Source: an uncultured Chthonomonadaceae bacterium (GTDB lineage: Bacteria > Armatimonadota > Chthonomonadetes > Chthonomonadales > Chthonomonadaceae). Taken from it: DNA of 64,000 bases. The stretch covers positions 320,001-384,000 of the forward strand of contig CAWIEK010000053.1 of assembly GCA_963835065.1 (NCBI GenBank). The letters run 5' to 3'. Each line of letters opens with the position of its first letter. The stretch's first letter is position 1. The notes under the pieces are model-generated. The model made no database searches. It saw nothing but the letters and a program-made list of their open reading frames with translations, and was not told where the DNA came from. Of this stretch, positions 10,348 through 48,035 are shown one piece after another. The translations under genes were made by a program, and so were the position numbers.

Positions 10348-10544
10348 AACCACGGAGAACACGGAGGACAGGAGGAGAGGAGAAAACTTACCACGGATGA
10401 AACGGATGAAACAGATAAACACGGATCAAATCAAACTTTCCCTCTGTATCCGCGTCAATCCGCGTTATCCGTTTCATCCGTGGTAAGTCCCTATCCTTTT
10501 TTCCTCACCTTCTCCTCCCCGTGTCCCCCGTGTTCTCCGTGGTT
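10348..10544. repeat. Nested ACCAC-type nonamer inverted-repeat elements
   Basis: Outer AACCACGGAGAACACGG...CCGTGTTCTCCGTGGTT; inner CTTACCACGGATGAAACGGAT (10387)...ATCCGTTTCATCCGTGGTAAG (10487). Confidence 0.9.
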
Positions 10545-10553
10545 TATATGTTT

Positions 10554-11393
10554 TTAGCGGTCTGCGGAACCGGTCAGCATTTGCGCGAGGAAGAAATCAG
10601 CGACGAAAATCAGCAGGACGCACAGCACGACGGAATTGGTGGTGCTGCGGCCCACGCCGGTTGCGCCGCCCCGTGTGCGCAAGCCCTGGTGACACGCGAC
10701 CACGCCGACAATCAGGGCGAATACGACGGATTTCATCAGGCCGTGCGTCAGGTCCTCCAGGCGAGTAAAATGCTGCACCGATTCCAAAAACTCGGCGTGG
10801 GCTATGCCGTTCGCGCCCGCCATCAGATAGCCGCCGATCATTCCGGACAGGTCGGCAAACAGCGTGAGCAGGGGCAGCATCAGCACGGCGGCAAGGATGC
10901 GCGGCACGACAAGATAGCGGGTCGGCGAGACAGCCATTGCGCGGAGAGCGTCTACCTGTTCTGTTACGACCATCGTGCCGATTTCGGCGGCAATCGCGGC
11001 TCCGGCGCGCGCGGCAAACGCCACGCCGCCCAGCACGGGGCCGAGTTCGTTGAGAAACGCATAACTCAGCGTCCCGCCAACAAACGACGTTAGCCCGCCA
11101 ACCTGCTGCGCCAGTGTCGCCGTGTACAGCGAAAATACGGCTCCCGTCGCCGTTGTCACGACAAGCACGATCCAGATGCTGTCCGCGCCAATAGACGCCA
11201 TTTGCGTCATCAAGTCGCGCGCATTGATGCCACCGGATGCAATGGAGCCGATAAAGCGCCCAAACAACTGCATCGCTTCGCCCACAAAGGTCAACACGGC
11301 ATTAGCCGCCGCGCCCACGCCACGGGAACGGAGGGGAGTCACTTCGGCCTGCGCTATACTGCCGGTTTTTTGCTGCACCGCTTGGTTCGCCAT
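10554..11393 (-). CDS. mlaE: MlaE-type ABC permease
   Basis: ELGPVL, AAEIGTMVVTEQVDALRAM, GVGRSTTNSVV. Confidence 0.92.
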   Translation of the reverse strand: MANQAVQQKTGSIAQAEVTPLRSRGVGAAANAVLTFVGEAMQLFGRFIGSIASGGINARDLMTQMASIGADSIWIVLVVTTATGAVFSLYTATLAQQVGGLTSFVGGTLSYAFLNELGPVLGGVAFAARAGAAIAAEIGTMVVTEQVDALRAMAVSPTRYLVVPRILAAVLMLPLLTLFADLSGMIGGYLMAGANGIAHAEFLESVQHFTRLEDLTHGLMKSVVFALIVGVVACHQGLRTRGGATGVGRSTTNSVVLCVLLIFVADFFLAQMLTGSADR

Positions 11394-11399
11394 ACTTCT

Positions 11400-11429
11400 A
11401 GTATACCGACCCTGCCCCTATCACGTCAA
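11400..11429 (-). promoter_or_regulatory. sigma70-type promoter for the mla operon
   Basis: TTGACG-18 nt-TATACT, 6 nt before the ATG. Confidence 0.6.
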
Positions 11430-11445
11430 CGCCCAAAAGAATATC

Positions 11446-11686
11446 AATTCGTCTTCACCACAGAGGCACAGAGACACAGAGGGGGCACAGAGAAAAACGA
11501 AGGAGAGAAGATATAAGATATAAGTGGGAGGGAGCGCAAGTGTGTTCTCTCCTTGAATAATCCTGTTTAATCCTGAAAATCCTCTTAATCCTGTCTATTT
11601 CTTCTCCTTTTTCCTTTTCTTTTCTCCTTTTCTTCTTTTCTCTGTGAAACCTCTGTGTCTCTGTGCCTCTGTGGTGAAGACGAATT
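11446..11686. repeat. CACCAC-type element with perfect 36-bp arms
   Basis: AATTCGTCTTCACCACAGAGGCACAGAGACACAGAG and its exact reverse complement at 11651-11686; AATCCTG-type run inside. Confidence 0.92.
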
Positions 11687-13076
11687 AAACAGCTTCGCGG
11701 ATGCGGGAAAGCAGGCGGGCAAGGTGGCGCGTTCCCCGCGTGAAGTCGTCGAGTCGGATATTTTCGTTGGGGGCGTGGGCGCGGAGGCCGGGGTATTCGA
11801 TGCCGGGGCTGGTCACGGGCAGGCCGAGAAAGCCCGTAAACCACCACATCGGGCCGGAGCCGCCGAGCAGGGGCGCAATGGACGCGGGTTTGCCGTACAC
11901 GTCCTGCGCGGTTTTTGCCGACAGGCGCACAAGCGGATGGTCGGGGTCAACGCGGGCAGGACGTTGCCCTCCCAAATACTTTATTTCGATGTCAGTGAAA
12001 CCGCGCGCATCTAAGTGCGCCCGCAGGCTGCGGTGTACGTCTTCGGGGTCTTGGTCGGGAACCAGGCGGAAATCCATTTTGGCGCGGGCTTCGGACGGCA
12101 GCACGGTTTTCGCGCCCATGCCTTGCCAGCCGCTATCCAGTCCGCACAGGGTCAGGGTTGGCTCGAATACGGCGCGGCGCTTGAATTCCAACCCCGTTGT
12201 CTGCATTCCGCCCAATAGTTGCTGTGGCGTCAGGCCGAATTGTTCGCGGAAGGTGGTTTCGTTGGTGGGCAGGGCGTCGAGCAATTGCAGGTCGCGCAGG
12301 GTCGGCAATTGGGCTTTGTCATAGTGGCCGGGCAGCAAAATACGCTCATTGGCGTCTTTCAGCGTGGATAACGCCCATACCAGCCGCCAGGCCGCGTTGG
12401 GAAGCAGCGAGCCGCCATTGCCGGAGTGCGCGTCATAGGCGATGGTTTTCACATGCAGTTCAAAGTACGCGATGCCGCGCATTCCGCAGTACAGCGCGGG
12501 GGTTCCGTTTTCGTCTTCGCCGCCTTCTTCCCAGATGCAGGCGTCGGCGCGGAGCAATTCGCGGTTCGCTTCGACCCACGCGCCGATGTGCGGGCTGCCG
12601 ACTTCCTCTTCCCCTTCAGCCACAAACTTTACATGGAAGGGCAGATCGCCGCCATGCGCGGTTCGGACCGCATCCAGAGCCAGCAGGCGCGAAACAATGT
12701 GCCCCTTATCATCCCCTACCCCGCGCGCAATCGCCTTGCCGTCACGCAGGGTCAATTCAAACGGCGGGCTGTCCCACAAGTCCAGCGGTTCCGCCGGCTG
12801 CACGTCATAATGGTTGTAGAACAAGACGGTGGGCGCGTCAGCCTGCTTGCTTTGCGCGGTTCCAAACGCAATGGGCGGGCCATCCACGACAGGCATAATC
12901 TGCGCGTTCAGGCCATGCGCCCGCATCAAACTGACAACCAGTTCGGCGCAGGGTTCCAGAGACGCGCCCTTCGCCGACACGCTTGGAATAGCGCACAACG
13001 CTGCCAGTTCCGCCAGCGCGTTTGCCTGCCCCGCCACAACAGCGGCATCCATTCGGGCGTTGATTGTCTCGTTCAT
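11685..13076 (-). CDS. M20/M25/M40 family metallo-hydrolase (ArgE/DapE-like)
   Basis: YNHYDVQP, RGVGDDKG, EGEEEVGS, HAPNENI. Confidence 0.92.
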   Translation of the reverse strand: MNETINARMDAAVVAGQANALAELAALCAIPSVSAKGASLEPCAELVVSLMRAHGLNAQIMPVVDGPPIAFGTAQSKQADAPTVLFYNHYDVQPAEPLDLWDSPPFELTLRDGKAIARGVGDDKGHIVSRLLALDAVRTAHGGDLPFHVKFVAEGEEEVGSPHIGAWVEANRELLRADACIWEEGGEDENGTPALYCGMRGIAYFELHVKTIAYDAHSGNGGSLLPNAAWRLVWALSTLKDANERILLPGHYDKAQLPTLRDLQLLDALPTNETTFREQFGLTPQQLLGGMQTTGLEFKRRAVFEPTLTLCGLDSGWQGMGAKTVLPSEARAKMDFRLVPDQDPEDVHRSLRAHLDARGFTDIEIKYLGGQRPARVDPDHPLVRLSAKTAQDVYGKPASIAPLLGGSGPMWWFTGFLGLPVTSPGIEYPGLRAHAPNENIRLDDFTRGTRHLARLLSRIREAV

Positions 13077-13107
13077 GCAAACTCCTGAGAAGAGAAGTTA
13101 TGAAGTT

Positions 13108-13196
13108 ATAAGGGATAAGGGGCAAGGAACAAGCGAAAAGATAAGAAGTTCTTCAACTTCCGTACTTATCCCTTATCCCTTACCCCTTATCCCTTG
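13108..13196. repeat. Inverted heptamer element (AGGGATA/TATCCCT)
   Basis: ATAAGGGATAAGGGGCAAGG ... CTTATCCCTTATCCCTTACCCCTTATCCCTTG. Confidence 0.8.
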
Positions 13197-13202
13197 CTCG
13201 AA

Positions 13203-13274
13203 AGGAGCCGACCAGAATCGAACTGGTGATCGCGGTTTTGCAGACCGCTCCCTTAGCCACTTGGGTACGGCTCC
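13203..13274 (-). tRNA. tRNA-Cys(GCA)
   Basis: GGAGCCG acceptor stem, CTGCAAA anticodon loop, GTTCGATTC T-loop. Confidence 0.95.
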
Positions 13275-13429
13275 ATAGAATACAGAAAAATGCGGCGCGA
13301 CAAACACCACAACACAAAACTTCAAACCGCGCAGGAAGCCAAAGCGTTCAGGCAAACAAATGCCGGACTCACCGCGTCCGGCAGGAACACGCCCCGACAC
13401 ACCTTACCACCAATCTGTAAACCTGCGCA

Positions 13430-13501
<72 letters not shown>

Positions 13502-13513
13502 AAAACTGACACA

Positions 13514-13918
13514 CTAAATCTCGAAATCTACAGCCCAACGTATATTCTTCGTTTGGTTGTTAGCTGGCGGATCAATTCGCAAGATACCTAATGATTGACT
13601 AACCGCTTCGCGTGGAACCAAATACGTTTTCTGGTTTGCCGGACAATACACACCGTAAAAATCTACTTTGTCGCCGTAACATTTACGAGTGTGTTTAGTT
13701 GCCCCTTGTTGAGCCATCGTATACAGATTGAATTGTACTGTACCCTGCTTTAGTCGACCGGTTTTACACTGGATACGATAAAAACAACCGTTTTCTTCCG
13801 TGACCAGATCGTAATCCTGCTGATTCCCAAAAGGGATGAGAACTGTTCTTCCGGCTTTTAAGAGCGCAGCAAGAATAACACCTTCTGTTGTGGTTCCAAC
13901 CTGTGTCGTATTAGCCAT
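13514..13918 (-). CDS. PD-(D/E)XK endonuclease resembling group I intron-associated I-Ssp6803I family
   Basis: G..TE..., IPFG...YDLV...YRIQCKTG, Y...VDFYGVYCP...YLVP, LRIDPP..NQ; GAGG RBS; AT-richer than flanks. Confidence 0.8.
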   Translation of the reverse strand: MANTTQVGTTTEGVILAALLKAGRTVLIPFGNQQDYDLVTEENGCFYRIQCKTGRLKQGTVQFNLYTMAQQGATKHTRKCYGDKVDFYGVYCPANQKTYLVPREAVSQSLGILRIDPPANNQTKNIRWAVDFEI

Positions 13919-13968
13919 ACAGAACCTCAACTAGACACGGATAAAAGAACCTTGCGGCTACTATACAC

Positions 13969-13998
13969 ATTATAAGCCTGCTGCAAGGTATTTGTCAA
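13969..13998 (-). promoter_or_regulatory. Consensus sigma70 promoter reading into endonuclease, tRNA-Gly and tRNA-Cys
   Basis: TTGACA-18 nt-TATAAT. Confidence 0.85.
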
Positions 13999-14098
13999 GT
14001 GGCAGGACATGAAAATTGCGTGAGCGTTGCCGACCGCCTTATTTTGCCGGAACCGGGTGTTTTCAACGCCTGCGGTGGAACGGGCGTATTCTGTTTAT

Positions 14099-14220
14099 TG
14101 CCGGGTACTTTCAGTACCCGGCAAAACAAAACAAGCGTCCTTCGGACGCGATACTTTATTCGCAAATTCCCGCGTACCGCAGGACGCTTGTACTTTCCTG
14201 CCGGGGATTGAAATACCCGG
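14099..14220 (+). repeat. REP/MITE-like four-hairpin element
   Basis: Aligns with 2485-2607 (CAAAACAAGCGTC...GGACGCTTGTACTTTCCTGCCGGG). Confidence 0.85.
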
Positions 14221-14300
14221 ACAGGCGGAAGCATTGCAGGAATCGGGTGAGCAATAGCGAAATACAGCATCAGCAGGAAACAAAGCCAGGAGGCGCAGGG

Positions 14301-14738
14301 ATGGAACCGACAACAAGCACGAAACACGAAACGGAGTCATCTACACAGGCCATGAGTACCAAGAACGGTGAGCCTGACACAACCCCTGGCGCGGTTACGC
14401 AATCATTTGTCACCGCGCCCCCTCACGTTGCGCCCCACGCGCCGCAGCGCGAAGAAGAGGCTGCTGCAAAATACCATGACATCAGCACGGCAGTTATGAT
14501 GGCGACGTTTCTGCCGGGCGGCGGACAGCTTTCTAATGGGCAGACGGGAAAAGCCTTGCTGCTGATGGGCGTCACATTAGGGGGATTGGGGTTTTTGATA
14601 TGGCTCCACAGCAGCGTCATGCTCTGGATAGGGCTGGCAACAGGGCTGGTCATCTATATTGGGGCCATCCTGGATGCCGCCCTGATCGCGCGGCGTTTGC
14701 GCCGTCAGGAACGGGTACGCCCATGGCAGTGGTTCTGA
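14301..14738 (+). CDS. Small membrane protein
   Basis: AGGAGG RBS; FLPGGGQLSNGQTGKA followed by two hydrophobic helices. Confidence 0.7.
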   Translation: MEPTTSTKHETESSTQAMSTKNGEPDTTPGAVTQSFVTAPPHVAPHAPQREEEAAAKYHDISTAVMMATFLPGGGQLSNGQTGKALLLMGVTLGGLGFLIWLHSSVMLWIGLATGLVIYIGAILDAALIARRLRRQERVRPWQWF

Positions 14739-14776
14739 GAAGAACCACTGCCATGAGGACGTGTACTCCGGTCAGG

Positions 14777-17700
14777 TCAGCGTTGCGCCAGATTTGATGA
14801 TACTTGCGGGGCGGTGAAGGTGTACGCGCCCGATCCCACCTGGTAGACTGCGCAGCCGGCTTCCATGCGCGCGAACGTCACGCCTTCCACTTTGTTTGCC
14901 GGCTTGCCGCCTTCCATTACCTGTGTGGCGCTTTGGACCGGCACGTACACCGTTGCCGTCGTGTTGGCGGGAACGGTAATGTGATAGACGAACTGCCCGT
15001 TTTCCAGTTTCCAATCGCTTGTAATCGGGCCGTGTATGCTGTCGTAGGTGGCGCGGGCATACGTCAGGCCGCCGCCGGGGTGCGGATGCAGCACGATGCG
15101 CTTGTACGCGGGCTGAACCGGGTCGAGATCAATCCCGGCAACGCTGGCATACATCCACTCGCCAACCGAACCCAGCGAATAATGGTTGAAACTGTTCATG
15201 CCGGGGTCCTGAAAGCCTTTGTCCTCTGTCCAGCCGTCCCAGCGCTCCCAAATGGTGGTCGCGCCCTGCCGAATGGAATAGCCCCAGGACGGATACGTGT
15301 CATTGTTGAGCAGGCGGTACGCCACATCCAGATGCCCGGTTTGCGTGAGTGTCGGCGTCAGGTAGCCGACGCCCAAAAAGCCGGTTGACAGATGCCCGCT
15401 GCGCTTGTTTATAATGTCGTCCACCAGATACCGCGCCGCGGCTTCCCGCTTTTCATCCGGCAGCAGATTGAAGCGCAGGGCAAGCACGTAAGCCGTCTGC
15501 GTATCGCTCTTAATCCGTCCATCCGCGCCCACAAACTCGCGGTTGAACGCCGCTTTGATCTGCGCGAACAAGTCCCGATACTGCTGCGCGTCCTCGGTTT
15601 TGCCGATTGCCTGCGCCATCTGCGCCATGAGCTGCGCGTCATACGCGAAATAGGCTGTTGCCAGAATTTCGCGGGGCGTATCTGATTTGACATTGAGCCA
15701 GTCGCCGAAGTTGTTGTTGGCGCGTTTGCGCCAGATGAAATCGGGGTTGACGGAGCGGATGTATTCGATCCACTTTTGCATCGCCGGATAGCGCTCGGCA
15801 ACCAGGCGCGTGTCTCCGTAACAGCGATAAATCGTCCAGGGCACGATTACGCCCGCATCGCCCCAGGCGGGAGCGCCGTCCGACTTGTCGCCCATGCGCG
15901 GCGTTACGTCGGAAAAGCCGCCTTCGGGCGATTGCGCGTCTACAACATCCTGCGTCCACTTGGTCATAAACGCGGCAATGTCGCTGTTGTAGCTTGCCGT
16001 GCGAACGAAAATCTGCGCGTCGCCCATCCATCCCAATCGCTCATCGCGCTGTGGGCAGTCCGTCGGCACTTCGAGATAGTTGCCCCGCTGCCCCCACACG
16101 ATGTTGTGCTGCAATTTGTTCACGAGCGGGCTGGAACACGCGAAGGTTCCCGCAGGCGGAGTGGCGGACGTAATCACAATCCCCGTCACGGCGTCAAGAG
16201 AAGGTTTCGCGGTCAACCCGGTCAATTCCACATACCGGAACCCGTGAAACGTAAACGTCGGCTCCCAAACCTCCGTACCACTCCCCTTGCACGTATAATA
16301 ATCTGTCGCTTTCGCGCCGCGCAGGTTGGTGGTGTAAATCGTGCCGTCGGGACTGAGCATTTCGGCAAACCGGATGCGAACCGTCGTACCTGCTTCGCCC
16401 TTCACCTTGATACGCGCCCACCCCACCATGTTCTGCCCCAAATCGAACACGTATGCGCCCTGCGGCTTTTCCGTCATGCTCCGCGCCTTCAATTCCTCCA
16501 CCTTTTCCACGGATTGGTCGGGCTGAGAAACGAGGGCAAATGATGAGTGATGAGTGATGAGTGATGAATGGGAATTCAATTCATCACTCATCATTCCGCG
16601 TTCATCATTTGCCTCTGCTTGTTTCCACGCATGGTCATCAAACGCCGCCGTGTTCCAGCCGGGCATTTCTTTGCGGGCGTCGTAGGTTTCGCCGTCGAGC
16701 AGGTCGTCGCGCAGGATGGGGCCGGGGGAGGCTTTCCACGAGGCGTCGGAAACAACGGTTTCGGCTGTGCCGTCTTCGTATGTCAGATGCAGTTGCACAA
16801 GGGCGCGGGGCTGTGTGCCGTAGTTGTTGCCTCCGGTCAGGCCGACGTGCCCGCAGAACCAGCCGTCGCCAAGCGTGACGCCAACCGCATTGTCGCCGGT
16901 TTGCAGCATTTTGGTCACGTCGTAGGTCTGGTACTGTATCCGCTTGTTGTAATCGGTCCAGCCGGGGCGGAAAATGTCCTGGCTGACGGGCTTGCCGTTG
17001 AAGGAGAGTTTGTACAATCCCTGCGCAGTCGCATACACTCGCGCCGAGCGCAGGGTCTTGCGGACGGCGAATGTTTTGCGCAGATAGGAGGCGGGGCGAT
17101 TGGCGGCTGCCGCATTGGGCAGTCCCCAGGGCGCATCCCCGATGTTGGCGATCTCCAGCGCATGAGGCAATGTGTTGGCAGCCGTATCCAGCCTGCCCGC
17201 TTTCGGTATGGCGTTTGCCGCCAGCCAATCTTTGTTGGTGACGGCGCGAAACATGGTTCCATCCGCATACGTGATTTGAACCGAAGCGGCGATACCTGCC
17301 GGCCCGTCCGTGTTGTTGGCGGCAAGCCGGATGGTGTTTTCGCCGGGTTTCAGCGCGTCCTTGATGTCCATGCGGCCGGCGGACTGCCAGCCGGACTGCT
17401 CGCCTACGCGCCTGTCGTTCACGCGCGCCTCAAAAGAGTTATCCGCAATGCCTACCAGTTCCGCCCGCGTAATCGCCGCATCGGTTCGCACCGGAACCGT
17501 ATGCAGGAAGTAACGAGTGCCTGCCGGCGCGGATTGGCGTGGGTTGCCTTCGGGATACCATACCCATTTCACGTTTTTCCAATCTTCCGCCCGTTGCGCC
17601 AGGGCCGGCATGGGCATTGTCGTCCATTGCGCTTTCCAGTCGGCGGGAGACAGCAAGCCCATTTCCCAATGCGCAGGCGCGCTGAACGCCGATACGCGCC

Positions 17701-18079
17701 CCTGCTTGTCCCAAACTCGTACCTTCCACCACGCCGATTGCCCGGAGCCAAGCGGTTTGCCCGCATACGCGATGTGTATGGATTCGTCGGAAGCGGTTTT
17801 GCCGCTGTCCCACAAATCCGCCTTGTCCGCTTTCAGCATTTCGGGAGCGCTTGCCACCAGAATCTGGTACGCCGATTGCGCCTGATTGCGCTGTTTGGAT
17901 TCCAGCGTCCAGTACAGGCGCGGATGGGGAGATTCCACTGCCAGCGGGTTCATCAGATACTCGCAGCGTAAGTTGGCAATCCGCATGTCGGCGTGGGGCG
18001 CAGCATGGAAACGCGCCACAGGCATTGTGTGCAGCATTAAAAGGCTGAAAAGTCCAATCATCGTTGAGTCAACTCCCAT
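14777..18079 (-). CDS. GH78 alpha-L-rhamnosidase, secreted
   Basis: LRCEYLMNP, FDLGQNMVG, FTFHGFRY, PTDCPQRDERLGWMGD, GATTIWERW, MNSFNHY. Confidence 0.95.
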   Translation of the reverse strand: MGVDSTMIGLFSLLMLHTMPVARFHAAPHADMRIANLRCEYLMNPLAVESPHPRLYWTLESKQRNQAQSAYQILVASAPEMLKADKADLWDSGKTASDESIHIAYAGKPLGSGQSAWWKVRVWDKQGRVSAFSAPAHWEMGLLSPADWKAQWTTMPMPALAQRAEDWKNVKWVWYPEGNPRQSAPAGTRYFLHTVPVRTDAAITRAELVGIADNSFEARVNDRRVGEQSGWQSAGRMDIKDALKPGENTIRLAANNTDGPAGIAASVQITYADGTMFRAVTNKDWLAANAIPKAGRLDTAANTLPHALEIANIGDAPWGLPNAAAANRPASYLRKTFAVRKTLRSARVYATAQGLYKLSFNGKPVSQDIFRPGWTDYNKRIQYQTYDVTKMLQTGDNAVGVTLGDGWFCGHVGLTGGNNYGTQPRALVQLHLTYEDGTAETVVSDASWKASPGPILRDDLLDGETYDARKEMPGWNTAAFDDHAWKQAEANDERGMMSDELNSHSSLITHHSSFALVSQPDQSVEKVEELKARSMTEKPQGAYVFDLGQNMVGWARIKVKGEAGTTVRIRFAEMLSPDGTIYTTNLRGAKATDYYTCKGSGTEVWEPTFTFHGFRYVELTGLTAKPSLDAVTGIVITSATPPAGTFACSSPLVNKLQHNIVWGQRGNYLEVPTDCPQRDERLGWMGDAQIFVRTASYNSDIAAFMTKWTQDVVDAQSPEGGFSDVTPRMGDKSDGAPAWGDAGVIVPWTIYRCYGDTRLVAERYPAMQKWIEYIRSVNPDFIWRKRANNNFGDWLNVKSDTPREILATAYFAYDAQLMAQMAQAIGKTEDAQQYRDLFAQIKAAFNREFVGADGRIKSDTQTAYVLALRFNLLPDEKREAAARYLVDDIINKRSGHLSTGFLGVGYLTPTLTQTGHLDVAYRLLNNDTYPSWGYSIRQGATTIWERWDGWTEDKGFQDPGMNSFNHYSLGSVGEWMYASVAGIDLDPVQPAYKRIVLHPHPGGGLTYARATYDSIHGPITSDWKLENGQFVYHITVPANTTATVYVPVQSATQVMEGGKPANKVEGVTFARMEAGCAVYQVGSGAYTFTAPQVSSNLAQR
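16536..16612. repeat. (TGATGAG)n inverted element in frame within the GH78 gene
   Basis: 34-nt arms around a 9-nt loop; encodes ANDERGMMSDELNSHSSLITHHSSFA. Confidence 0.85.
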
Positions 18080-19349
18080 TTGAATACGTTTTTGCGCTTA
18101 ACGCCAGCCCTGCCGCTCGTTGGCCGGACACGAGCGCGCCGTGCAGCGAACTTTGTACCGTGATTTCACCCGCCAGTATCAGGCCGGGAAGCGGCGTTCG
18201 GGCGTCGGGCAGTTTGTCCCAGATGCCGACGGGCTGCGCGAACTGCGCCCAGGTGACGCGGTAAATGCGCAGCAAGCGCCACATATCCGGCTGCGCGTCC
18301 GGGAACTGCGCCCCGATTTCCCGCTTGGCCGCGTCTGCCAGGGCTTCATCCGACAGGTTTGTGTCGCCTAACACCGTCACCGTGAGCAGGTGCTGGCCTT
18401 CCGGCGCATAATGGGGCGCGACGTTGCTCATCATCTGCGCGTTGTTGACCAGGCCATCGGGACTTGTAAACAGCGTCAGCAGTTTCTCGCGGTAGAGCGG
18501 TTCCGGCAGGGCGAAACAAAGCGTGTTGGACACGCGCCACGTCGCAGGCAGATGCAGTCCCGCCAATTGCGCCGCTTTGTCGAACTCGGTCGCCAGAACA
18601 ACCGCATCCGCTTCTACGGTTTCGCCACCCTCCAATTCAATGCCGGACGCGCGCCCATTCTTGTGAATCAATTTACGAACGGAACGGTTCAAATGAATAC
18701 TGTTCGGCGTCATGGTGTCGGCGATCTGCTGCGGCAATCCGCCCATGCCTTTTGCCGGAACCGCTGTTTCCCCTTCCGCCAGCATCTTGAACACAAACGC
18801 GAACATCCGCGAACTGGTTTCCAAACTCTTGTCCAGAAAAATGCCCGCATAAAAGGGACGGATAAAGCGGTCAATAAACTCAGAGGAAAACCCGTATTCG
18901 GTCAGGTACGCGCCCATTGTTTGATCCGGCATGGCGAAAATCTGCTGTACGCTCATGCCTTTCAGCAACAGGGTCAATTTGGCGACCAGAATCTTGTCCT
19001 GCAAGGAGAACAGGGACGAAAACGCGGTTGTCAGGGCTTTTGTTGGCGCGCGCAGAGGATCGGCAATGATCTGCCGCGTGTCGTTCCAGCACACCATTGC
19101 GCCCGGCTGAAACGCGCGCATTTCCAGCGCGTCCAAATTAATTTCCTGCCGTATCGCCGGGTACGCGGTCAACATCACCTGAAAACCCCGATCCAGCAAA
19201 AAGCCGTCTACGGTATCCGTCCGCACCCGCCCGCCCACGCCGTCACTCGCCTCATAAACCTGCGCGCTATGCCCCGCCCGCTGTATCGTTCGCGCGCAGC
19301 ACAGCCCCGCCAACCCGCCGCCCACCACAATGACATTCCTCTGAGCCAT
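18069..19349 (-). CDS. FAD-dependent oxidoreductase (amine oxidase/phytoene dehydrogenase-like)
   Basis: VVGGGLAGL, EASDGVGGRVRTD, LDRGFQV, GALVSGQRAA; GGAGG RBS. Confidence 0.88.
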   Translation of the reverse strand: MAQRNVIVVGGGLAGLCCARTIQRAGHSAQVYEASDGVGGRVRTDTVDGFLLDRGFQVMLTAYPAIRQEINLDALEMRAFQPGAMVCWNDTRQIIADPLRAPTKALTTAFSSLFSLQDKILVAKLTLLLKGMSVQQIFAMPDQTMGAYLTEYGFSSEFIDRFIRPFYAGIFLDKSLETSSRMFAFVFKMLAEGETAVPAKGMGGLPQQIADTMTPNSIHLNRSVRKLIHKNGRASGIELEGGETVEADAVVLATEFDKAAQLAGLHLPATWRVSNTLCFALPEPLYREKLLTLFTSPDGLVNNAQMMSNVAPHYAPEGQHLLTVTVLGDTNLSDEALADAAKREIGAQFPDAQPDMWRLLRIYRVTWAQFAQPVGIWDKLPDARTPLPGLILAGEITVQSSLHGALVSGQRAAGLALSAKTYSNGS

Positions 19350-19363
19350 GCAAACCTCCAATG

Positions 19364-19525
19364 CAAGAATAAACCACGGGGAACACGGGGAACACGGGGA
19401 GAATAAGGGGAACGAATTCCCACTTTCGCCTTAATTTCCGTTGACTTCGCGTATTTCGTGCTTATTCCCGATTTCCCCTCTGTTTTCCTCCCCGTGTTCC
19501 CCGTGTTCCCCGTGGTTTATTCTTG
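19364..19525. repeat. AACCAC-type nonamer element with perfect 38-bp arms
   Basis: CAAGAATAAACCACGGGGAACACGGGGAACACGGGGAG and its exact reverse complement at 19488-19525. Confidence 0.93.
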
Positions 19526-21662: not shown

Positions 21663-21670
21663 TCAAGAGG

Positions 21671-21799
21671 GGTGTTCAGGTGTTCAGGTGTTCGGATGTT
21701 CAGGATATACAAAATCACCCAAGTTTACCTTAGCGCACAACGCTCTCAGTCGAACATCCGAACACCCGAACACCTGAACACCTGAATACCCGAACACCT
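21671..21799. repeat. Inverted octamer (GGTGTTCA)n element
   Basis: GGTGTTCAGGTGTTCAGGTGTTCGGATGTTC ... GAACATCCGAACACCCGAACACCTGAACACC. Confidence 0.9.
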
Positions 21800-27091: not shown

Positions 27092-27103
27092 GGAGGTCTC
27101 CGA

Positions 27104-27226
27104 AGTAGTCAGTAGTCAGTAGTCAGTAGTCAGTAGAGATGCCTGCTCATTCAAAGCCTTGTGCAGAGCGATAGAATGAATAGGAATGGAATTTCTACTG
27201 ACTACTGACTACTGACTACTGACTAC
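27104..27226 (-). repeat. (AGTAGTC)4 inverted heptamer element
   Basis: Arms 27104-27137 and 27194-27226; loop related to those at 51551 and 54843 but reversed. Confidence 0.93.
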
Positions 27227-27229
27227 CTC

Positions 27230-37684: not shown

Positions 37685-37807
37685 TGCCGGGGATTGAAAA
37701 TCCCCGGCAGGAAAGTGCAAGCGTCCTGCGGACACGCCATTCAATAATAGAGTATCGCGTCCGCAGAACGCTTGTTTTGTGTAGACGGGAATTTTCAATC
37801 CCCGGCA
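37685..37807 (-). repeat. REP/MITE-like four-hairpin element, reversed
   Basis: CCCGGCAGGAAAGTGCAAGCGTCCTGCGGAC is the reverse complement of the right half of 2485-2607. Confidence 0.85.
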
Positions 37808-39080: not shown

Positions 39081-39262
39081 CCGTAGGGACACAACATGTT
39101 GTGTCCGCGCTCACCTCTACCGGAGGAGGACACGCCGCCGCCGGAGGACACGCCGCCGCCGGAGGACACGCCGCCGCCGGAGGACACGCCCGCCGCCGGA
39201 GGACACGCCGCCGCCGGAGGACACGCCGCCGCCGGAGGACACAACATGTTGTGTCCCTACGG
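39081..39262. repeat. Inverted GTAG-type REP pair enclosing six 18-bp tandem repeats
   Basis: CCGTAGGGACACAACATGTTGTGTCC ... (GGAGGACACGCCGCCGCC)6 ... GGACACAACATGTTGTGTCCCTACGG. Confidence 0.88.
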
Positions 39263-39325
39263 CATGGGCCATTAAGATGGTGGTTTTCAACCATTGGCGA
39301 CACGAAAAATAAGAATATAAGCGCG

Positions 39326-40278: not shown

Positions 40279-40283
40279 GTTTT

Positions 40284-40352
40284 CCGGGTACTGAAAGTAC
40301 CCGGCAGGAAAGTACAAGCGTCCTGCGGACGCGGGAATCTTGAAGCAGAGAA
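40284..40352 (-). repeat. Half copy of the REP-like element, reversed
   Basis: CCGGGTACTGAAAGTACCCGGCAGGAAAGTACAAGCGTCCTGCGGACGC. Confidence 0.8.
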
Positions 40353-40437
40353 TTACTTCCGCGAATTTGAAACGCGCTTATAAAAAATCGGCAGGAACTT
40401 GTCATTATGTGGCGAATCTTACGGCATTGGAATTTGA

Positions 40438-41622
<1,185 letters not shown>

Positions 41623-41634
41623 AACGGGAGTAAC

Positions 41635-41779
41635 TCTTCACCACCAAGACACCAAGAACACCAAGATAATACAGGCCACTAAAAGGCACAAAACCGGAGA
41701 CCTTTTCGTTCTCTCCTGCAATCTCGCAACATCTTTTTGCTCGTTCTGCTTGGTGTTCTTCGTGTCTTGGTGGTGAAGA
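41635..41779. repeat. CACCAC-type element with 31-bp arms (1 mismatch)
   Basis: TCTTCACCACCAAGACACCAAGAACACCAAG ... CTTGGTGTTCTTCGTGTCTTGGTGGTGAAGA. Confidence 0.9.
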
Positions 41780-41806
41780 ATTATAAACGGAAAGCAGCAG
41801 GGCAGG

Positions 41807-42364
41807 ATGGAACGGTACAACCTTCACAAAGACGTGAGACAATTTGCCATTCACAAGCGCTGGACGACGTATGCCGGAAGGCTGCTGCATGGGTTCTGGG
41901 CGCTGATTCCCCTGCTATTTTGGGTCTTCCTGTGGCAGCGTGACCCGCGCCCAACTCCGATTCTGTTGCCGCTGCTTCTGTTAGGACTTCCCCTGACAGT
42001 AGTTCTCGGCTGTGGCGCGTATCTGCTGTGGAAGCTGAGTACGGGCGGCGATACATTTGTGTTTGATGCCCGCACCCACCTGTTTGAACACAACCGGCAT
42101 GTGGTCAGCCATTGGGACGGGATCGCGCAAATTCAGGTGATAGATGTGCCGCACCAACGCGACAAACGGGGCATTCAGGCCATGCTGAACCTGGATGAGT
42201 ATTACTACACCTACCGGCTTGTCGTGCTGCTCCACAACGGCAAAAAATACGCCCTCGACGAGTGCGGCAACAAACAAACCATTGCGGAACTGGCGCAGGA
42301 AGTTGCCGCCTACACCAACAAAGTTGTCGTCAGCGACGTAGCCAATGCCGGCTGGTTCGCCTGA
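41807..42364 (+). CDS. Hypothetical membrane protein (2 TM plus soluble domain)
   Basis: 185-aa ORF between two repeat elements. Confidence 0.7.
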   Translation: MERYNLHKDVRQFAIHKRWTTYAGRLLHGFWALIPLLFWVFLWQRDPRPTPILLPLLLLGLPLTVVLGCGAYLLWKLSTGGDTFVFDARTHLFEHNRHVVSHWDGIAQIQVIDVPHQRDKRGIQAMLNLDEYYYTYRLVVLLHNGKKYALDECGNKQTIAELAQEVAAYTNKVVVSDVANAGWFA

Positions 42365-42404
42365 TTCAAACGCCTGCGCCGCGTGGCTGTAACAGAGAAG
42401 AAAC

Positions 42405-42510
42405 GAAGAACAGGAGAGAGGAACCGCGAAACACACGAACCAAACGAAAAGAGGACAAAAAGAGGACAGGAAATAGACAGTATTAAGCGGATTAGCAGGA
42501 TTAAAAGGGT
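42405..42510. repeat. AACCGCGAAA-type left arm plus a CAGGATT-type run
   Basis: GGAACCGCGAAACACACGAACCAAACGAAAAG; can pair with 43143-43190. Confidence 0.8.
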
Positions 42511-42818
42511 ATGTAGAGTCATCGTCGAAATCTTGGCAATACAGCGCTTCCAGCCCGATGTCTCGTTGTGTCAGGTTGTAGGAGTGAGGCATCGTGGCCT
42601 CCGCAGCGTCAGGGCGAGCGGGAGGGGTGAAACATAGGACTTGCACCTCCCTTCCTGTGTGTAACGCCTGAAATGTAGACGTTTGTTACCTGTTAGACGG
42701 TAGTATCGGGCAAAGGGTTCGTTTCTTTTGCGTTATTTTGCTTTTTTCTGCCTCTTTTTTCTATCTTTTTCCTGTCTGTTTTTGCGGGAGGGTTGCTATT
42801 GGTACTGTGGGAATGGGA

Positions 42819-43107
42819 ATGAAACACACCTGCCCTGTTTGTGGATACAACCAACTGAGCCGCGCGCCGGAAGATTATACAATCTGCCCCTGCTGCCGTA
42901 CGGAGTTTGGCGCAAGTGACCAGTTCTGGACACACGCGGAGTTACGTCAGGACTGGATTACGCGCGGAGCGCAGTGGAGCAGACGTTATGTTCCCGGAGC
43001 CGCAGGGATGGTCAGCCGCCGAGCAGCTAAAAACCATTGGTTACATCTGCACGTATGCGAATTTAGAAAGCATCGCGCGATCAAACCCAACACCGGCAAC
43101 AGTTTAA
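42819..43107 (+). CDS. Orphan cysteine-rich (CPCC-like) immunity-type protein, frame broken near 42990
   Basis: CPVCGY...ICPCCRTEFG..D..WTHAELRQDW...GWSAAEQLK; paralog of 43615-43947. Confidence 0.75.
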
Positions 43108-43132
43108 CCCTCTTCGCCCCTTTGCGGTTCTT

Positions 43133-43173
43133 TTTGCCTTTCCTTTTTCGTTTACTTTGCGTCTTTCGCGGTT
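43133..43173. repeat. 41-bp direct repeat (second copy 44044-44084)
   Basis: TTTGCCTTTCCTTTTTCGTTTACTT[T/C]GCGTCTTTCGCGGTT, 40/41 identical. Confidence 0.92.
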
Positions 43174-43194
43174 CCCCTCTCCTTGTCTTCCTTA

Positions 43195-43203
43195 TGGTAT
43201 AAT
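43195..43203 (+). promoter_or_regulatory. Extended -10 promoter for the toxin-immunity pair
   Basis: TGGTATAAT, then AGGAGG RBS at 43236-43241. Confidence 0.6.
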
Positions 43204-43249
43204 TTGGCAGTAGGAACCAACACTCTATGGGTTCAGGAGGGCACAAATT

Positions 43250-43618
43250 GTGCCGGTTGCCATCAATTTTGCAAGTTCGACACTTCTTACCAGACATTAT
43301 GCTCGGCATAAGGGAGACTTTGCTGTAACAAGCGAACAAGAGTATCTGAAAAAGGCCAAGAACTTCCTGAACACTCCTCTTGCCAGCAACACGAACATTG
43401 AAGAAAAACAGCGCAAAAGAGGCGGCGTCTTAGTTGAGGAGTGGGTTCGCTATGACAAAGCAACAAACGAATTTGCTGTCGTGTATATGGACGGCACAAT
43501 TGGGACTTACTTCAAGCCAATGATGTTGAGCGCGGCTCCAGCAGGTATGCCGCGCGACAAGATGCACAAGCGTTCAAGCAATTATCAGTATTTTCTGGAT
43601 GAGTGTGACTTACCATGA
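43250..43618 (+). CDS. Stand-alone polymorphic-toxin-like nuclease domain
   Basis: HYARHKGDF....EYLKKAKNF...VRYDKATNEF....DGTIGTYFKP resembles Rhs/CdiA C-terminal RNase tips; ATGA overlap with next gene. Confidence 0.7.
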   Translation: MPVAINFASSTLLTRHYARHKGDFAVTSEQEYLKKAKNFLNTPLASNTNIEEKQRKRGGVLVEEWVRYDKATNEFAVVYMDGTIGTYFKPMMLSAAPAGMPRDKMHKRSSNYQYFLDECDLP

Positions 43619-43947
43619 CAGAGAAAATTATATGTCCGGTGTGTGGATACGATGCGCTGGAGCGGCCTATCCACAATTACGACGTTTGCCCAAGTTGCCT
43701 GTGTGAGTTTGGCGTGAGTGATGCTGACTGGACTTACGCGGAATTGCGCGAGGATTGGATTGCTAATGGCGCGCTATGGGCATGGGGAAGCAAGGATATA
43801 CCGGAGCTTCGTGGCTGGTCGGCAGTCGAGCAATTGAAAAACATAGATTACCACTGCACATTGCAGGACATACGCAGCATAGCTCGTTTTCGAGAAACTT
43901 CTGATGGTATTGAACGGCCTGAGCTAAAGTCGGCGTTCGGCGCATAA
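43615..43947 (+). CDS. Cysteine-rich (CPCC-like) putative immunity protein
   Basis: CPVCGY...YDVCPSCLCEFG; translationally coupled to the toxin-like gene. Confidence 0.75.
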   Translation: MTEKIICPVCGYDALERPIHNYDVCPSCLCEFGVSDADWTYAELREDWIANGALWAWGSKDIPELRGWSAVEQLKNIDYHCTLQDIRSIARFRETSDGIERPELKSAFGA

Positions 43948-44131
43948 GCTAATGCCTTTCTAACAAGGATGCTGTTATGTCGCGCCTCGCAGGTGCAACG
44001 AAACGATTGTTCAAAGATGCACAGATGTGCTTAATTTTACTCCTTTGCCTTTCCTTTTTCGTTTACTTCGCGTCTTTCGCGGTTTGTATGTCTCCCCCTC
44101 TCCTCTTCTCCTCCCTTCTTCCTCCCCTTCC

Positions 44132-46699
44132 CTACGCCTGTTCCCACTCCGCAACCAAACTACGCGCTCTGGCAATGGCGCGTGTATCCTGCGTGGTTTC
44201 CAGCACCTGAAGCGCCTGCCGCACCCAGCGCAATGCCGCTGCCGAATTACCCTGCCTATTATAGAACAACGCCAGATTGATTAACGTCTCTCCTTCTCCA
44301 ACGCGATTTCCGGCCTCCCGGCGAATGACCAAGCTTTGCTCAAAGCAGGCAATCGCTTCCTCCCAATGGCCTTGACCCTCATAGACAACGCCCAGGTTGC
44401 TAAGCGTAATTGCTTCTTCCAACCTAGCCTTTAACTCTCGAAACAGGAGTAAACTTTGCTCAAAGCAGGCAATCGCTTCTTCCCAACGGCCTTGTTGCTG
44501 ATAGACATTGCCCAAGTTGGTAAGGGTTCCCCCTTCTCCAATGCGGTCGTCGAACTCGCGGCAGGTCGCTAAATCTTGCTCAAAGCAGGCAATCGCTTCC
44601 TCCCAACGGCCTTGTTGCTGATAGACATTTCCCAGGTTATTGAGCGTTTGTCCTTCGCCAATGCGGTTGCCAAATTCACGGAAGATTGGAAGGCTTTGTT
44701 CATAGCAGGCAATCGCTTCCTCCCAACGACCCTGTGTGTTGTAGACAACGCCCAGGTGAGTGAGAGTCCGCCCCTCGGCTGCTTTCTGGCCCGCAGTCCG
44801 TGTGACTCGTAAGGTTCGCAGGTTCAGTTCCTCTTGTTCCGACCACAGGCCGCGCAACAGCAGAAAACCGCCCATATACGCCGAAATGTATTCTATGACC
44901 TGCCATCTTTCTTCCCAACTCGTCTGCACTTCCGCAGTTTCGGCAGCATAGACGGCGTTGCGCCATTCTGCATCCAGAACGGCGTTGTTAGAATGGTCGT
45001 TAATGTTGTTGTGACCCATTGCTAATTGAGCATAGTAAATGCTGTAACGTTGCCGACGCGCATCCGCATTGGGCAGGTCATTCAATCTGGCAGCCGCGTA
45101 GAAGCGCGTGGGCCGCAGGAAGGTGTAGCGTCCGCAGCCATCCGCATCGAAGCCTTGCAGGTTTACAAGGCTGGCCTCGTGCAGTCGGTCCAGCAGGGTT
45201 TCGGCGTCTTCAATCTGACAAACCTCTTCCACCCGCGCAGCCGTGAACGTATCGCCGAAGACTCCCAGGCAGGCCAATCCTTCCTGAAACTGCGGCTCCA
45301 GTAGAGTGTATGACCAGTCCAAGCAACGAGTTAGAGACTCGTGACGGATGCTGGCATCGCTGTGAGCGTGTCCAGGCTGATGTCCACTGTACGGGCCGAG
45401 CGGCGTGTCGCGCAAGCCTTCCGCCATCTTTTGCAGCGAGCGCTTGCCCACATACGCCGCCACCAGTTCCAATCCCAACGCCTGACACTCCGTATACTTC
45501 AGAATGTCTTGGAACCACTTGCGCTCCCCACTTGAAACCTGCCAGCCGTCCACTTTTAACTGCGCCCGCTCCACAAACAGCCGTTCCGCTTCTTCGTCCG
45601 TCATGCCGGCAACCGGAACCTCTTTTTCCACATTGTCCAGTTTTACGGTTTCGCGCCCCGTCACCAATAAGCGCGCGTCGGGACAGGTGAGCAGCAAATC
45701 GCGCAGCAGGTCGCGGACTTCGACACAATCCACCGACTCGTAGTTGTCCAGCACGAACAGCGCGGCCTTGTCCTGCAAGGCGGGCAGCAGTTGTTCCAGC
45801 GTGGCCGGGTTGCCTTCCACCTGCATGGCCCGCCCTATCTCTTCCACAACCGACGCCTCAGATGCGAGACGGTCGACAAGCGCAACGAAATACAGGCCAT
45901 CCTTGAACGCGCTTGCGACTTGCAGGGCGCAGGCGACGGCCAGCCGGGTTTTGCCCATGCCGCCAAAACCGTGCAGCGTGACCAGCCGCACTTTTTCGCG
46001 GTCATTCAAGCGCTCGGCGTAATGGCGCAGGATTTTGGCCTGCAAGTCGCTGCGGTCAATATAGCGATTGAGTTCGATGCCGAACCCTTTAGGTATCCAG
46101 CGCGTTCCCGGCTCGCCCCGCGACGTGCCTTCCCCCTCCCACAGCAGTTCATGGATGTCTTCCGGGGTGAGAAAGTCTTTCAATCGGCGATTCTTCCAGT
46201 GCTGCCATTGGTATGCCTGCCCGTTTCCCGCTTCCTCGCAGGCTTTGTGCGACACCAGTATCTGCCCGCCCACGCCCGGCGCTCCTATACGTGAAGCGAG
46301 ATTCACTTCCAGATTTCGGTACTTGCCGTTCTCGAAAAACACTTCCTGCGAGGCGCGGTAAATGCCCATCCGCACCCGAACCGTCCACATTTTGCCTTCC
46401 GCTTCCTGCGCAGTCGGCTCTGCTTGTGCCGTAATCGGTTCCGCGTGGAGGCTTTGCTGAATGGCGCAGGCGCAGGCAAGAGCATCGCGGGCATGTTGGA
46501 ACGTGACCATAAAGCCGTCGCCGGGATGATCCACTTCATAGCCATTATGCGCCACAAACACTTCCCGCAAGCGTTCGTCATGCGCTTCCATCAAGGCTTT
46601 GTAGGCATGGGGAACCGCGCGGCTGAGTTTTGTAGACCCTTCCACGTCGGTATACAGCAGCGTAATCGTTCCCTGCGGCGGCACAATCGCTTCGGACAT
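44132..46699 (-). CDS. Class III nucleotide cyclase + STAND NTPase + TPR protein
   Basis: LLYTDVEGST, GDGFM, VRMGI; GFGGMGKT, FVLDNYE, LLVTGR; 40-aa TPR repeats. Confidence 0.9.
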   Translation of the reverse strand: MSEAIVPPQGTITLLYTDVEGSTKLSRAVPHAYKALMEAHDERLREVFVAHNGYEVDHPGDGFMVTFQHARDALACACAIQQSLHAEPITAQAEPTAQEAEGKMWTVRVRMGIYRASQEVFFENGKYRNLEVNLASRIGAPGVGGQILVSHKACEEAGNGQAYQWQHWKNRRLKDFLTPEDIHELLWEGEGTSRGEPGTRWIPKGFGIELNRYIDRSDLQAKILRHYAERLNDREKVRLVTLHGFGGMGKTRLAVACALQVASAFKDGLYFVALVDRLASEASVVEEIGRAMQVEGNPATLEQLLPALQDKAALFVLDNYESVDCVEVRDLLRDLLLTCPDARLLVTGRETVKLDNVEKEVPVAGMTDEEAERLFVERAQLKVDGWQVSSGERKWFQDILKYTECQALGLELVAAYVGKRSLQKMAEGLRDTPLGPYSGHQPGHAHSDASIRHESLTRCLDWSYTLLEPQFQEGLACLGVFGDTFTAARVEEVCQIEDAETLLDRLHEASLVNLQGFDADGCGRYTFLRPTRFYAAARLNDLPNADARRQRYSIYYAQLAMGHNNINDHSNNAVLDAEWRNAVYAAETAEVQTSWEERWQVIEYISAYMGGFLLLRGLWSEQEELNLRTLRVTRTAGQKAAEGRTLTHLGVVYNTQGRWEEAIACYEQSLPIFREFGNRIGEGQTLNNLGNVYQQQGRWEEAIACFEQDLATCREFDDRIGEGGTLTNLGNVYQQQGRWEEAIACFEQSLLLFRELKARLEEAITLSNLGVVYEGQGHWEEAIACFEQSLVIRREAGNRVGEGETLINLALFYNRQGNSAAALRWVRQALQVLETTQDTRAIARARSLVAEWEQA

Positions 46700-46870
46700 C
46701 AAGGCTGCCCTCCCTGCTTCCAAATTGGTACGGAGTGACTGAGCAACGGCGTCTCTCCCCACAAACCAAAAATCTCCAACAAAACAATAAACCGGCCTTG
46801 CAACAATGCCGGAGCGTTCGCCGCGCAAACCTGATTTTCCTCCCTCACCGCCTTACGCAGAAAAGAAGAA

Positions 46871-46928
46871 GAGGAGAAGAGGAGAGGGGGAGACATAGAA
46901 ACCGCGAAAGACGCAAAATAAACGAAAA
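46871..46928. repeat. 58-bp inverted repeat of 44056-44113
   Basis: 55/58 identical to the reverse complement. Confidence 0.92.
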
Positions 46929-47036
46929 CAGACGAACTGAAATTTTGTGCAGAAGGCGGAAACGCTTGCCAATAGAAGAAAGGGGAAGCCCTGTTTCCCC
47001 TTTCCTTTTGTTTTGCATTTTTCAGGAGAACCGTTC

Positions 47037-47747
47037 ATGCGCTCCCGCAGCCTTGTCCGCCATCTAATTCGTACCCTTTTGCTGTCGGCCCTCTTCTTTC
47101 TCGCGCTGGCGTCGGCGCAGGCGCAACAGCTTATTTTTGATAATACCTTCCGCTACACCAGTCAGGAAACGCGCGACGACGGCACGGGCATCGGAACCTG
47201 TATCACGCAGGTTGCCGCCGATACGCAAATCGGCAGTTTCGCCGCCCCGGTCAGCCTCACGCAAGCGGGCGATCTGGAATTTCTAATTTTCGATTCCAAC
47301 AACGGCGCGTTGCTGTACCAGAGCGCGCCCAAAGCCTACGCTTTCGACAACGGCGTGGTTTCCCTGCACCATTCCGACCCGTTCCAATTCACGCTGCAAG
47401 CGGGACACCAGTACGACATAGGCGTTTTGGCGGATGTGCCGCTGGTGTACCAGTGGTGGTTCCACAGTTTTGCCGCTTCGCCCGGCAAGCCCCCCTACAG
47501 TTTCACTGAAAACGGCATCACGTCGGCAGGCAGCCTCAACGCCAACTTCAACACCTACGCCGGCACGTTCGCCCACCCTCACGATGACCTCGCTCCCGGC
47601 CTCGTGGATATGGGACTCGTCCTCTACGGCCCTACCGCCAATCCGTCCGCCGTTCCCGAACCCGGCGCAGTAACGCTGATCGCCGCTCTCCTCCTGTCCA
47701 CCGCCATGCTGCTCCGCTGGAAGAGAATTCACCACCCGCTTCGCTAG
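47037..47747 (+). CDS. PEP-CTERM sorting domain protein
   Basis: CAGGAG RBS, signal peptide ending AQAQ, VPEPGA + TM + RWKR. Confidence 0.88.
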   Translation: MRSRSLVRHLIRTLLLSALFFLALASAQAQQLIFDNTFRYTSQETRDDGTGIGTCITQVAADTQIGSFAAPVSLTQAGDLEFLIFDSNNGALLYQSAPKAYAFDNGVVSLHHSDPFQFTLQAGHQYDIGVLADVPLVYQWWFHSFAASPGKPPYSFTENGITSAGSLNANFNTYAGTFAHPHDDLAPGLVDMGLVLYGPTANPSAVPEPGAVTLIAALLLSTAMLLRWKRIHHPLR

Positions 47748-48035
47748 AGGCACAGAGGAAGAGGGGGAGAAGGGGAGAAGAGGAGAAGAGGAGAGTGGGA
47801 ACCGCGAAACACACGAACTAAACGAAAAAAGAACAAAAGGACAAGGAGAAAAGCATCATAGAAACCATGAGGTGACTGTACTTCTTTACCGTCTTTGCTT
47901 CTTTGCGGTTTTTGTTTTTCCTTTTTTCGTTTTGGTTCGTTTCTTTCGCGGTTCCCCTCTCTTCTCTCCTGTTGTCCTTCTCGCATCGGCTTTTCCTCTG
48001 TGTCTCTGTGTCTCTAGCGAAGCGGGTGGTGAATT
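47726..48035. repeat. Nested ACC[AG]C-type inverted-repeat elements
   Basis: Outer 32-bp arms (1 mismatch); inner GGGAACCGCGAAA (47797)...TTTCGCGGTTCCC (47956). Confidence 0.9.

Follow-up and report, generated by a model that had tools for sequence, protein, structure and literature searches.

REPIN/RAYT systems are among the closest described parallels to the repeats reported here. According to the accessible parts of two accounts (PMC3116915, PMC3337134), hundreds of extragenic inverted doublets of repetitive extragenic palindromic (REP) sequences form hairpins (REPINs), a low-copy partner gene (the REP-associated tyrosine transposase, RAYT) accompanies each repeat type, and clusters are inferred to arise from insertions within or beside existing elements. 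A second parallel is found in the intervening sequences of 23S ribosomal RNA (rRNA), which in Coxiella enclose a small gene within a stem, short tandem repeats being found next to that gene (accessible part of PMC4990558). The elements considered here were noticed in 64,000 nt of DNA from an uncultured Chthonomonadaceae bacterium (assembly GCA_963835065.1, contig CAWIEK010000053.1; "the window" denotes this whole stretch), where inverted arms open with ACCAC or ACCGC and close with GTGGT or GCGGT. On balance, these elements are probably gene-less copies of a hairpin cassette that brackets a gene for a GxxExxY protein, which likely cuts the hairpins, and one arm type (type C) is likely moved by an IS66 insertion-sequence transposase.

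The elements differ from REPIN/RAYT systems in that their arms consist of about three tandem 8–9-nt units and not of REP palindromes, their partner is a predicted PD-(D/E)XK-fold protein and not an HUH/Y1 transposase, and several types are nested in a definite order. By this comparison they would work like REPIN/RAYT systems but lack two defining features, the palindromic REP arms and the HUH/Y1 partner. Four PF01797 (Y1_Tnp) hits were found; three have no arm from the census described below within 1.5 kb and are flanked by other repeats, and the fourth, a partial hit, has arms 0.4–1.3 kb away. The elements are set apart from the 23S rRNA intervening sequences by their location outside rRNA, by a PF13366 cargo in place of S23p/PF05635 and by hundreds of empty copies, and the resemblance appears to lie in design only. 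The protein family itself (PDDEXK_3, PF13366, TIGR04256), to which the three GxxExxY genes of this genome belong, has been described as of unknown function and as having undergone multiple transfers; the accessible part of that account is silent on flanking repeats (PMC3424549). GxxExxY is also mentioned in the accessible part of a paper about a CRISPR locus, and that of PMC3733652 held nothing relevant to the topics sought. A literature search (mostly openly readable papers, supplements excluded) found neither a description of a GxxExxY–repeat link nor a paper joining all the features sought for a miniature inverted-repeat transposable element (MITE) of the IS66 family.

GxxExxY Genes Lie between Inverted Arms

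Contigs of the source genome (G000) are labeled C1 onward, related genomes G001, G002 and so on, and GxxExxY loci L followed by a number. Arm types with ACC starts are designated A (unit CACAGAG), B (a variant of A), C (CACCAAG), D (CACGGAG), E (CACGGGG), F (CGCGAAA), G (CACGGAT) and H (CGCAAAG). The genome contains three PF13366/TIGR04256 genes, all above curated cut-offs and each between ACC arms: type D on both sides on contig C39, type H on C3, where an empty element of the same type stands beside the gene, and type B on the left with type C on the right on C19. GxxExxY proteins had been named as a candidate for the enclosed open reading frames (ORFs) in the first-pass annotation of the window, and this was borne out both by these three genes (3/3) and by loci elsewhere. 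A flanking inverted repeat scoring at least 30 was found at 53 of 76 such loci, from many phyla, compared with 1 of 137 shifted controls. The loci were retrieved with an alignment of a nine-protein subclade and represent the best 80 of at least 599 matches, biased to that subclade; 76 of the 80 had enough flanking sequence.

Terminal conservation within the arm census is circular, as the census was seeded on ACC motifs, and an ACC-free motif was used for that question. It identified 110 arms at loci across phyla, 77 of which start with ACCAC or ACCGC. Related arm types start with GCCGC, AGACAG, TCCGC or GAACCAT. The conserved terminus proposed earlier therefore holds in part: ACC[AG]C is common but not universal, because the arms of other clades start differently. 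Arms of the non-ACC type J flank GxxExxY genes at L030 and L046. These two loci, in G001 and G002, correspond to a site near window position ~18069, and in both the J-armed gene directly follows the ortholog of an amine oxidase gene; in the source genome it is missing and a different gene comes next.

Residues belonging to nuclease motifs (E35, D75, E85-x-K87, Q99 and Y103) are invariant in 22 GxxExxY proteins. The structural model (predicted local distance difference test score 94) matches Cas4, lambda exonuclease and Hjc; Foldseek gave an E-value of 4e-4 for Cas4 SSO0001, and the best Z score was a middling 7.7 (root-mean-square deviation 3.4, 98 aligned). The model points to a PD-(D/E)XK fold carrying its catalytic motif, and the protein would accordingly be a candidate nuclease.

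Arms and gene are also coupled across genomes. The gene was found in 15 of 31 related genomes, and a general arm pattern showed an excess of more than 50 over its control in 6 of these 15 and in 0 of the 16 without the gene (p 0.007, a value overstated by kinship). G015 has a single GxxExxY gene, whose arm type is matched 110 times in that genome (at most 2 times in others), and G006, whose gene is F-armed, contains 122 F-type matches. A tree was built from 85 proteins, 22 of them local and the others from 63 of the 80 loci (those excluded were 4 at edges, 11 lacking clear arms and 2 containing stops). With 75 proteins labeled, arm class changes 16 times on it, compared with 25.9 when shuffled.

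Elements Occupy Recurrent Sites at Gene 3' Ends

The motif census yielded 732 arms of the eight ACC types and 215 arms of the non-ACC types I, J and P. An unseeded scan returned 1,310 perfect inverted repeats of at least 16 bp in the genome; 167 have ACC[AG]C near the start, a few of them unrelated. As read from the sequence, each arm consists of about three tandem 8–9-nt units and is purine-rich, and the arms of one element co-vary (30/34 in type A vs. 19.1 expected; 29/42 in type B vs. 16.6). Closed ACC elements number 196, with a median of 182 bp, and 195 could be placed against gene calls made for this study (6,798 genes). None lies inside a predicted gene; 119 are at co-directional, 63 at convergent and 13 at divergent junctions, the background being 4,890, 920 and 917. 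ACC follows the stop codon immediately in 18 of the 119 co-directional placements. The distance from ACC to the stop is at most 5 nt in 75 of 200 elements of types other than C (non-C), compared with 0 of 34 type C elements with IS66-type ends, and the co-directional/convergent/divergent splits are 88/56/6 and 22/6/5, respectively. Cargo other than GxxExxY between distant arms was also considered; the 11 long pairs were mostly chance neighbors. Type I arms (GCCGCGAAT) are solo in 69 of 77 cases in the genome, often just past a stop codon, and G002 has closed pairs.

Orthologous junctions were compared with G002, a sister species with a genome of ~7.5 Mb (2.07 Mb compared, 580 junctions paired). 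Sixty-three junctions are occupied in the source genome and 46 in G002, with 38 occupied in both vs. 5.0 expected. The outer type group is the same in 26 of the 38 and different in 12, and no arm was detected in G002 at 25 of the 63, so that, contrary to one outcome envisaged at the outset, the relative does not carry identical elements throughout. At C19 the left arm of the gene-bearing element is type B here and type C in G002, the first ten bases being shared before the sequences diverge; gene-bearing cassettes are themselves present or absent between relatives. In G001 (480 kb, 75 junctions), 4 junctions are occupied in both. Because junctions are co-occupied with changed types or interiors, the slots appear to persist and to be refilled. 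Read-derived contigs over element sites revealed no clean empty allele. One contig of run X4 is ~166 bases shorter across the type C site, which is a hint only. The sequencing runs listed for this DNA included none of RNA, and all shares were at or below 0.20.

The same data could reflect RNA hairpins that are kept by the host at gene 3' ends, where they act in mRNA processing or stability, and spread by ordinary recombination with GxxExxY as a passenger. The post-stop position and the share of convergent junctions (56/150 for non-C elements vs. 920/6,727 overall) agree with this explanation, as do the very stable folds (z approximately −16; −15.8 for window positions 10340–10553 and −16.5 for 47720–48040), the co-variation of arms within elements and the 38 junctions occupied in both species. 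It is nevertheless considered unlikely, since mismatches show no strand bias for G-U over A-C (35 vs. 30 on the sense strand), the amplified type in G015 and G006 is the arm type of the resident gene, and no expansion is seen in the 16 genomes that lack the gene.

Type C Carries IS66 Ends

ACCAC had been proposed as an enzyme-recognized end; for type C (the element near 41635 in the window), the real end proved to lie 10 nt further out and to be IS66-like. A direct repeat matching at 7–8 of 8 positions stands exactly 10 nt outside ACC and GGT in 14 of 41 non-redundant type C elements (control 0.0). The true end, GTAACT.TTCA, is present on 29 of the 41, and a direct repeat of at least 6/8 accompanies 18 of these 29 but 2 of the 12 others. 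The single IS66 element of the genome (C61:2459-4002) has ends GTAACTATTCAG and an 8-bp repeat; it is a single-ORF element of 1544 bp with one PF03050 gene, a 511-codon open frame without stops. Similar ends (GTAACTGCTCAGCA) and an 8-bp repeat are given for ISDge4, of the ISBst12 group in the IS66 family, in the accessible part of PMC12898284. The end sequence, the 8-bp duplication and the resident IS66 with matching ends together liken type C to this group, and type C is likely an ordinary MITE moved by the IS66 transposase. It differs from IS66/ISBst12 MITEs in that its body is a GxxExxY-type arm pair and in that it is only one of eight types. The IS66-type end occurs in 2 of 31 genomes; G002 (80% complete) has 14 such ends, and no IS66 transposase was found in it. 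Since the C arms beside GxxExxY genes at C19 and L024 are without the IS66 end, type C presumably gained it later.

No target duplications of 4, 6 or 8 bp were detected at offsets of 0–24 nt in types A (32 elements), B (41), D/E (32), F (20) and P (32), a search that short palindromic duplications of the TA or TTAA kind would escape. Nor was any found for 19 elements of type O in G015, a genome that does have IS66 hits. GxxExxY is the likely mover of the non-C types, for which such duplications are lacking and which lie close against stop codons. That all types are instead MITEs driven by insertion-sequence transposases, with the arms as captured filler, seems quite improbable. Type C appears to be such a case, three other expanded genomes have 5–6 IS66 hits, and the genome holds IS630- and IS4/5-type transposases. 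However, duplications are absent from the types just listed, the IS66 ends alone resembled an element end when inverted ends were located at 19 transposase loci of four families (compared by eye), G001 and G002 have many arms yet no IS66 hit, and non-C elements are tied to stop codons whereas IS66-ended C elements are not.

Nesting Is Ordered and Cores Are Shared

Extra arms occur within 97 of 150 closed non-C elements vs. 2 of 46 C elements. The order is polar: A/B lies outside F in 46 cases and the reverse in none, A/B outside H in 26:0, F outside J in 23:0 and F outside H in 24:7; D/E is outside F in 20 cases and F outside D in 11, and types J, G and C never enclose. Elements of G015 are nested as well. 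Three core families (20, 17 and 14 members) account for 51 of 68 closed F elements, and each occurs in A/B shells, in D/E shells and without a shell; C12:2388 and C29:40399 have a near-identical core in different shells, and in the second family the D/E shell requires 4 changes for 4 rows on the tree. Element interiors more generally are homologous across dispersed loci, in families of 21, 20 and 12. The 101 spacers between shell and F arm have a median of 35 nt and are 89% purine, and purine 8-mer tracts stand inside A/B arms (98/198), seldom inside C arms (10/107), and outside F arms (92/209), with a background of 18/4,341. The same purine 8-mer also builds the arms of a four-helix-bundle gene. 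An unrelated hairpin repeat was found inside an F arm (G000 C60:180243) and inside a G015 element (L280), so that these hairpins appear to receive repeats of other families too.

Compared with G002 (partly by eye), 20 nested sites comprised 8 with the shell kept without the inner element, 2 with the inner element kept without the outer, 1 with the same layout, 3 with another type and 6 with no arm. The earlier proposal of insertion into existing elements broadly holds, with 8 shells against the 2 converse cases, but the nested parts bear no target duplication. The same counts disfavor the idea that the outer arms are in every case the later addition, though G001 at window position 10348 would fit it. 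Existing hairpins appear to be refilled, yet many nested copies, which share homologous interiors, appear to have been copied as whole units. Because interiors are homologous across dispersed loci, empty and nested forms would themselves have been copied; this homology (including that of the F cores) and a tblastn search of the genome that found no GxxExxY remnants beyond the three genes make it improbable that each empty hairpin is the scar of a gene-bearing cassette that inserted and later lost its gene, with repeated visits producing the layers, even though empty elements resemble gene-bearing ones minus the gene, the C3 gene has a same-type empty element beside it, and gene-bearing cassettes vary in presence between relatives.

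Proposed Mechanism

In the mechanism favored here, the GxxExxY protein would cut its cognate hairpins, and repair from another copy would place composites at gene 3' ends and refill hairpins, swapping interiors or arms. Crossing during repair within the shared terminus or the purine tracts could build the layers. Type C, having gained IS66 ends, would move by the IS66 transposase. In a bolder version, put forward tentatively, GxxExxY would be the enzyme behind a class of mobile DNA not yet described. As a PD-(D/E)XK nuclease that stands alone, it would cut type-specific hairpins, host repair would copy these to stop codons and into each other without target duplication, leaving repeats nested in order like Russian dolls, and one repeat would have defected to the IS66 transposase by acquiring its ends. 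For a widespread protein family of unknown function (PF13366), this provides a defined substrate candidate that could be assayed simply, and, if the scheme is true, bacteria would have a REPIN-like gene-and-repeat system that relies on another class of nuclease and produces no target duplication. One genome sets the same kind of arm as an IS66 MITE, with duplications, placement proportional to junction types and no nesting, against a stop-anchored nesting mode, and this contrast lets two movement routes be tested side by side.

Several observations weigh against the GxxExxY mechanism. Twenty-three of the 76 cross-phylum loci fall under the inverted-repeat threshold. Arms of types F, G, E and A abound in the source genome, yet none of these types flanks a GxxExxY gene in its assembly (92% complete); for F, 122 exact arms were counted and neither an F-armed gene nor a remnant of one was found. 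In G012, 57 F arms coexist with a GxxExxY gene of another type. Type-specific pairing of arm and gene thus holds in G015 and G006 and fails for F, G, E and A in the source genome and for F in G012, the assemblies being incomplete. As arms and gene are linked, co-inheritance alone could explain their concordance on the tree. Kin genomes are not independent in the presence test, which is also confounded by insertion-sequence load because the expanded genomes G006, G012 and G015 carry 5–6 IS66 hits each. No clean empty-vs.-filled pair at high identity was obtained, short palindromic duplications (TA, TTAA) may yet exist for the non-C types, and loop-targeted insertion fits the data as well as conversion via purine tracts.

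Elements of the Window

All eight elements that had been reported, with their units, are present in the window. For six ACCRC starts, a perfectly matching inverted 12-mer lies no more than 800 bp away, vs. a mean of 0.01 and a maximum of 1 in 100 shuffles, and the elements are therefore not due to chance. Perfect arms of 36–38 bp had been claimed throughout; this is true of only two (37 bp at 11446 and 38 bp at 19364), the lengths in order being 17, 22, 37, 38, 18, 12, 24 and 13 bp. Arms at 43128, 44083, 46901 and 47909 and a non-ACC half-arm within the 11446 element had been overlooked. The features are as follows, with a strand where one is assigned; the first and last coordinates of ACC and GGT are added where they differ from the limits.

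10349..10543, shell of type D (unit CACGGAG) separating mlaE from an ATP-binding cassette (ABC) ATPase gene; in G002 this junction is empty
10390..10484, type G element (CACGGAT), enclosed by the D shell
11446..11686, type A element (CACAGAG; ACC 11457, GGT 11675), 11 bp of outer complementarity
11556..11600, minus strand, half-arm of non-ACC type J (GACAGGAT), with approximate limits, within the A element
19364..19525, type E element (CACGGGG; 19373-19516)
41622..41629, plus strand, left copy of the 8-bp target duplication (AAACGGGA)
41630..41784, type C element (CACCAAG; 41640-41774), likely a MITE, with IS66/ISBst12-type ends GTAACTCTTCA; interior homologous to 14 other loci
41785..41792, plus strand, right copy of the target duplication (AAACGGAA, matches 7/8)
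42423..43172, type F left arm (42423) and right half-arms H (43128) and F (43172), enclosing a small ORF and one copy of a 160-copy repeat
44056..44113, minus strand, solo type F right arm (GGT 44083) with pyrimidine tract
46871..46928, plus strand, solo type F left arm (ACC 46901) with purine tract
47731..48030, type B shell (its arm is that of type A plus a short insert behind ACCAC)
47801..47952, type F element (CGCGAAA) inside the B shell; includes a right half-arm of type H (47909)

Nested and simple window elements alike have homologous copies dispersed in the genome. The D-around-G composite recurs at C44:531892 (83% over 197 nt), and at the 10348 junction G001 has the G element without the D shell. 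The interior of the A element at 11446 is homologous to 5 further loci, and its junction in G001 is occupied by a different type; that at 19364 holds type E here, with J in its place in G002 and K in G001. The F interior at 47801 is homologous to 3 other F cores. The flanking bases of the arms had been described as unique to each locus. Some of them are family consensus, and a modest locus-specific excess does exist: complementarity of at least 6 bp outside ACC is found in 9–19% of own pairs vs. 1–4% of cross pairs (types A, B, D, E and F). Small outward complementarity of this kind may come from template switching at palindromes, and the loss of inner half-arms is likely due to central deletion in long palindromes. 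A scan of the window against Rfam found two transfer RNAs and nothing else.

The stretch 42423–43172 is probably a composite rather than one simple element, because it holds a copy of the 160-copy repeat, a small ORF and stray half-arms. The repeat copy (42496–42715) belongs to a separate family, of which only 7 of the 160 genomic copies lie within 200 bp of a census arm. The region between F arms contains small ORFs at 42819–43058, 43229–43615 and 43615–43947, and two start with CPxCG motifs; the first gave a weak PF14206 match below the cut-off and the others matched no family. At a guess, they might form a toxin-immunity-type cassette. Positions 43286–44047 had no read cover in three sequencing runs.

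Other Repeats and Genes Nearby

Parallel arms of inverted 7/8-mer tandem units occur in the window at 7088–7348, 7955–8062, 16535–16613, 21670–21798, 27102–27229, 51551–51675, 54844–54965 and 56479–56599. The genome has 447 period-7 inverted repeats, and all three of its PF05635 four-helix-bundle genes lie between 7/8-mer arms. REP-like hairpins were found at 2486–2607, 14109–14213, 37685–37807 and 39081–39262 of the window and at C42:76532, C51:103107 and C49:523763 of the source genome; because some REP-like families flank Y1_Tnp genes, REPIN/RAYT systems probably coexist in this genome. The dnaB gene (3968–7090) gave intein and LAGLIDADG hits, and G001 and G002 align over part of this stretch only.

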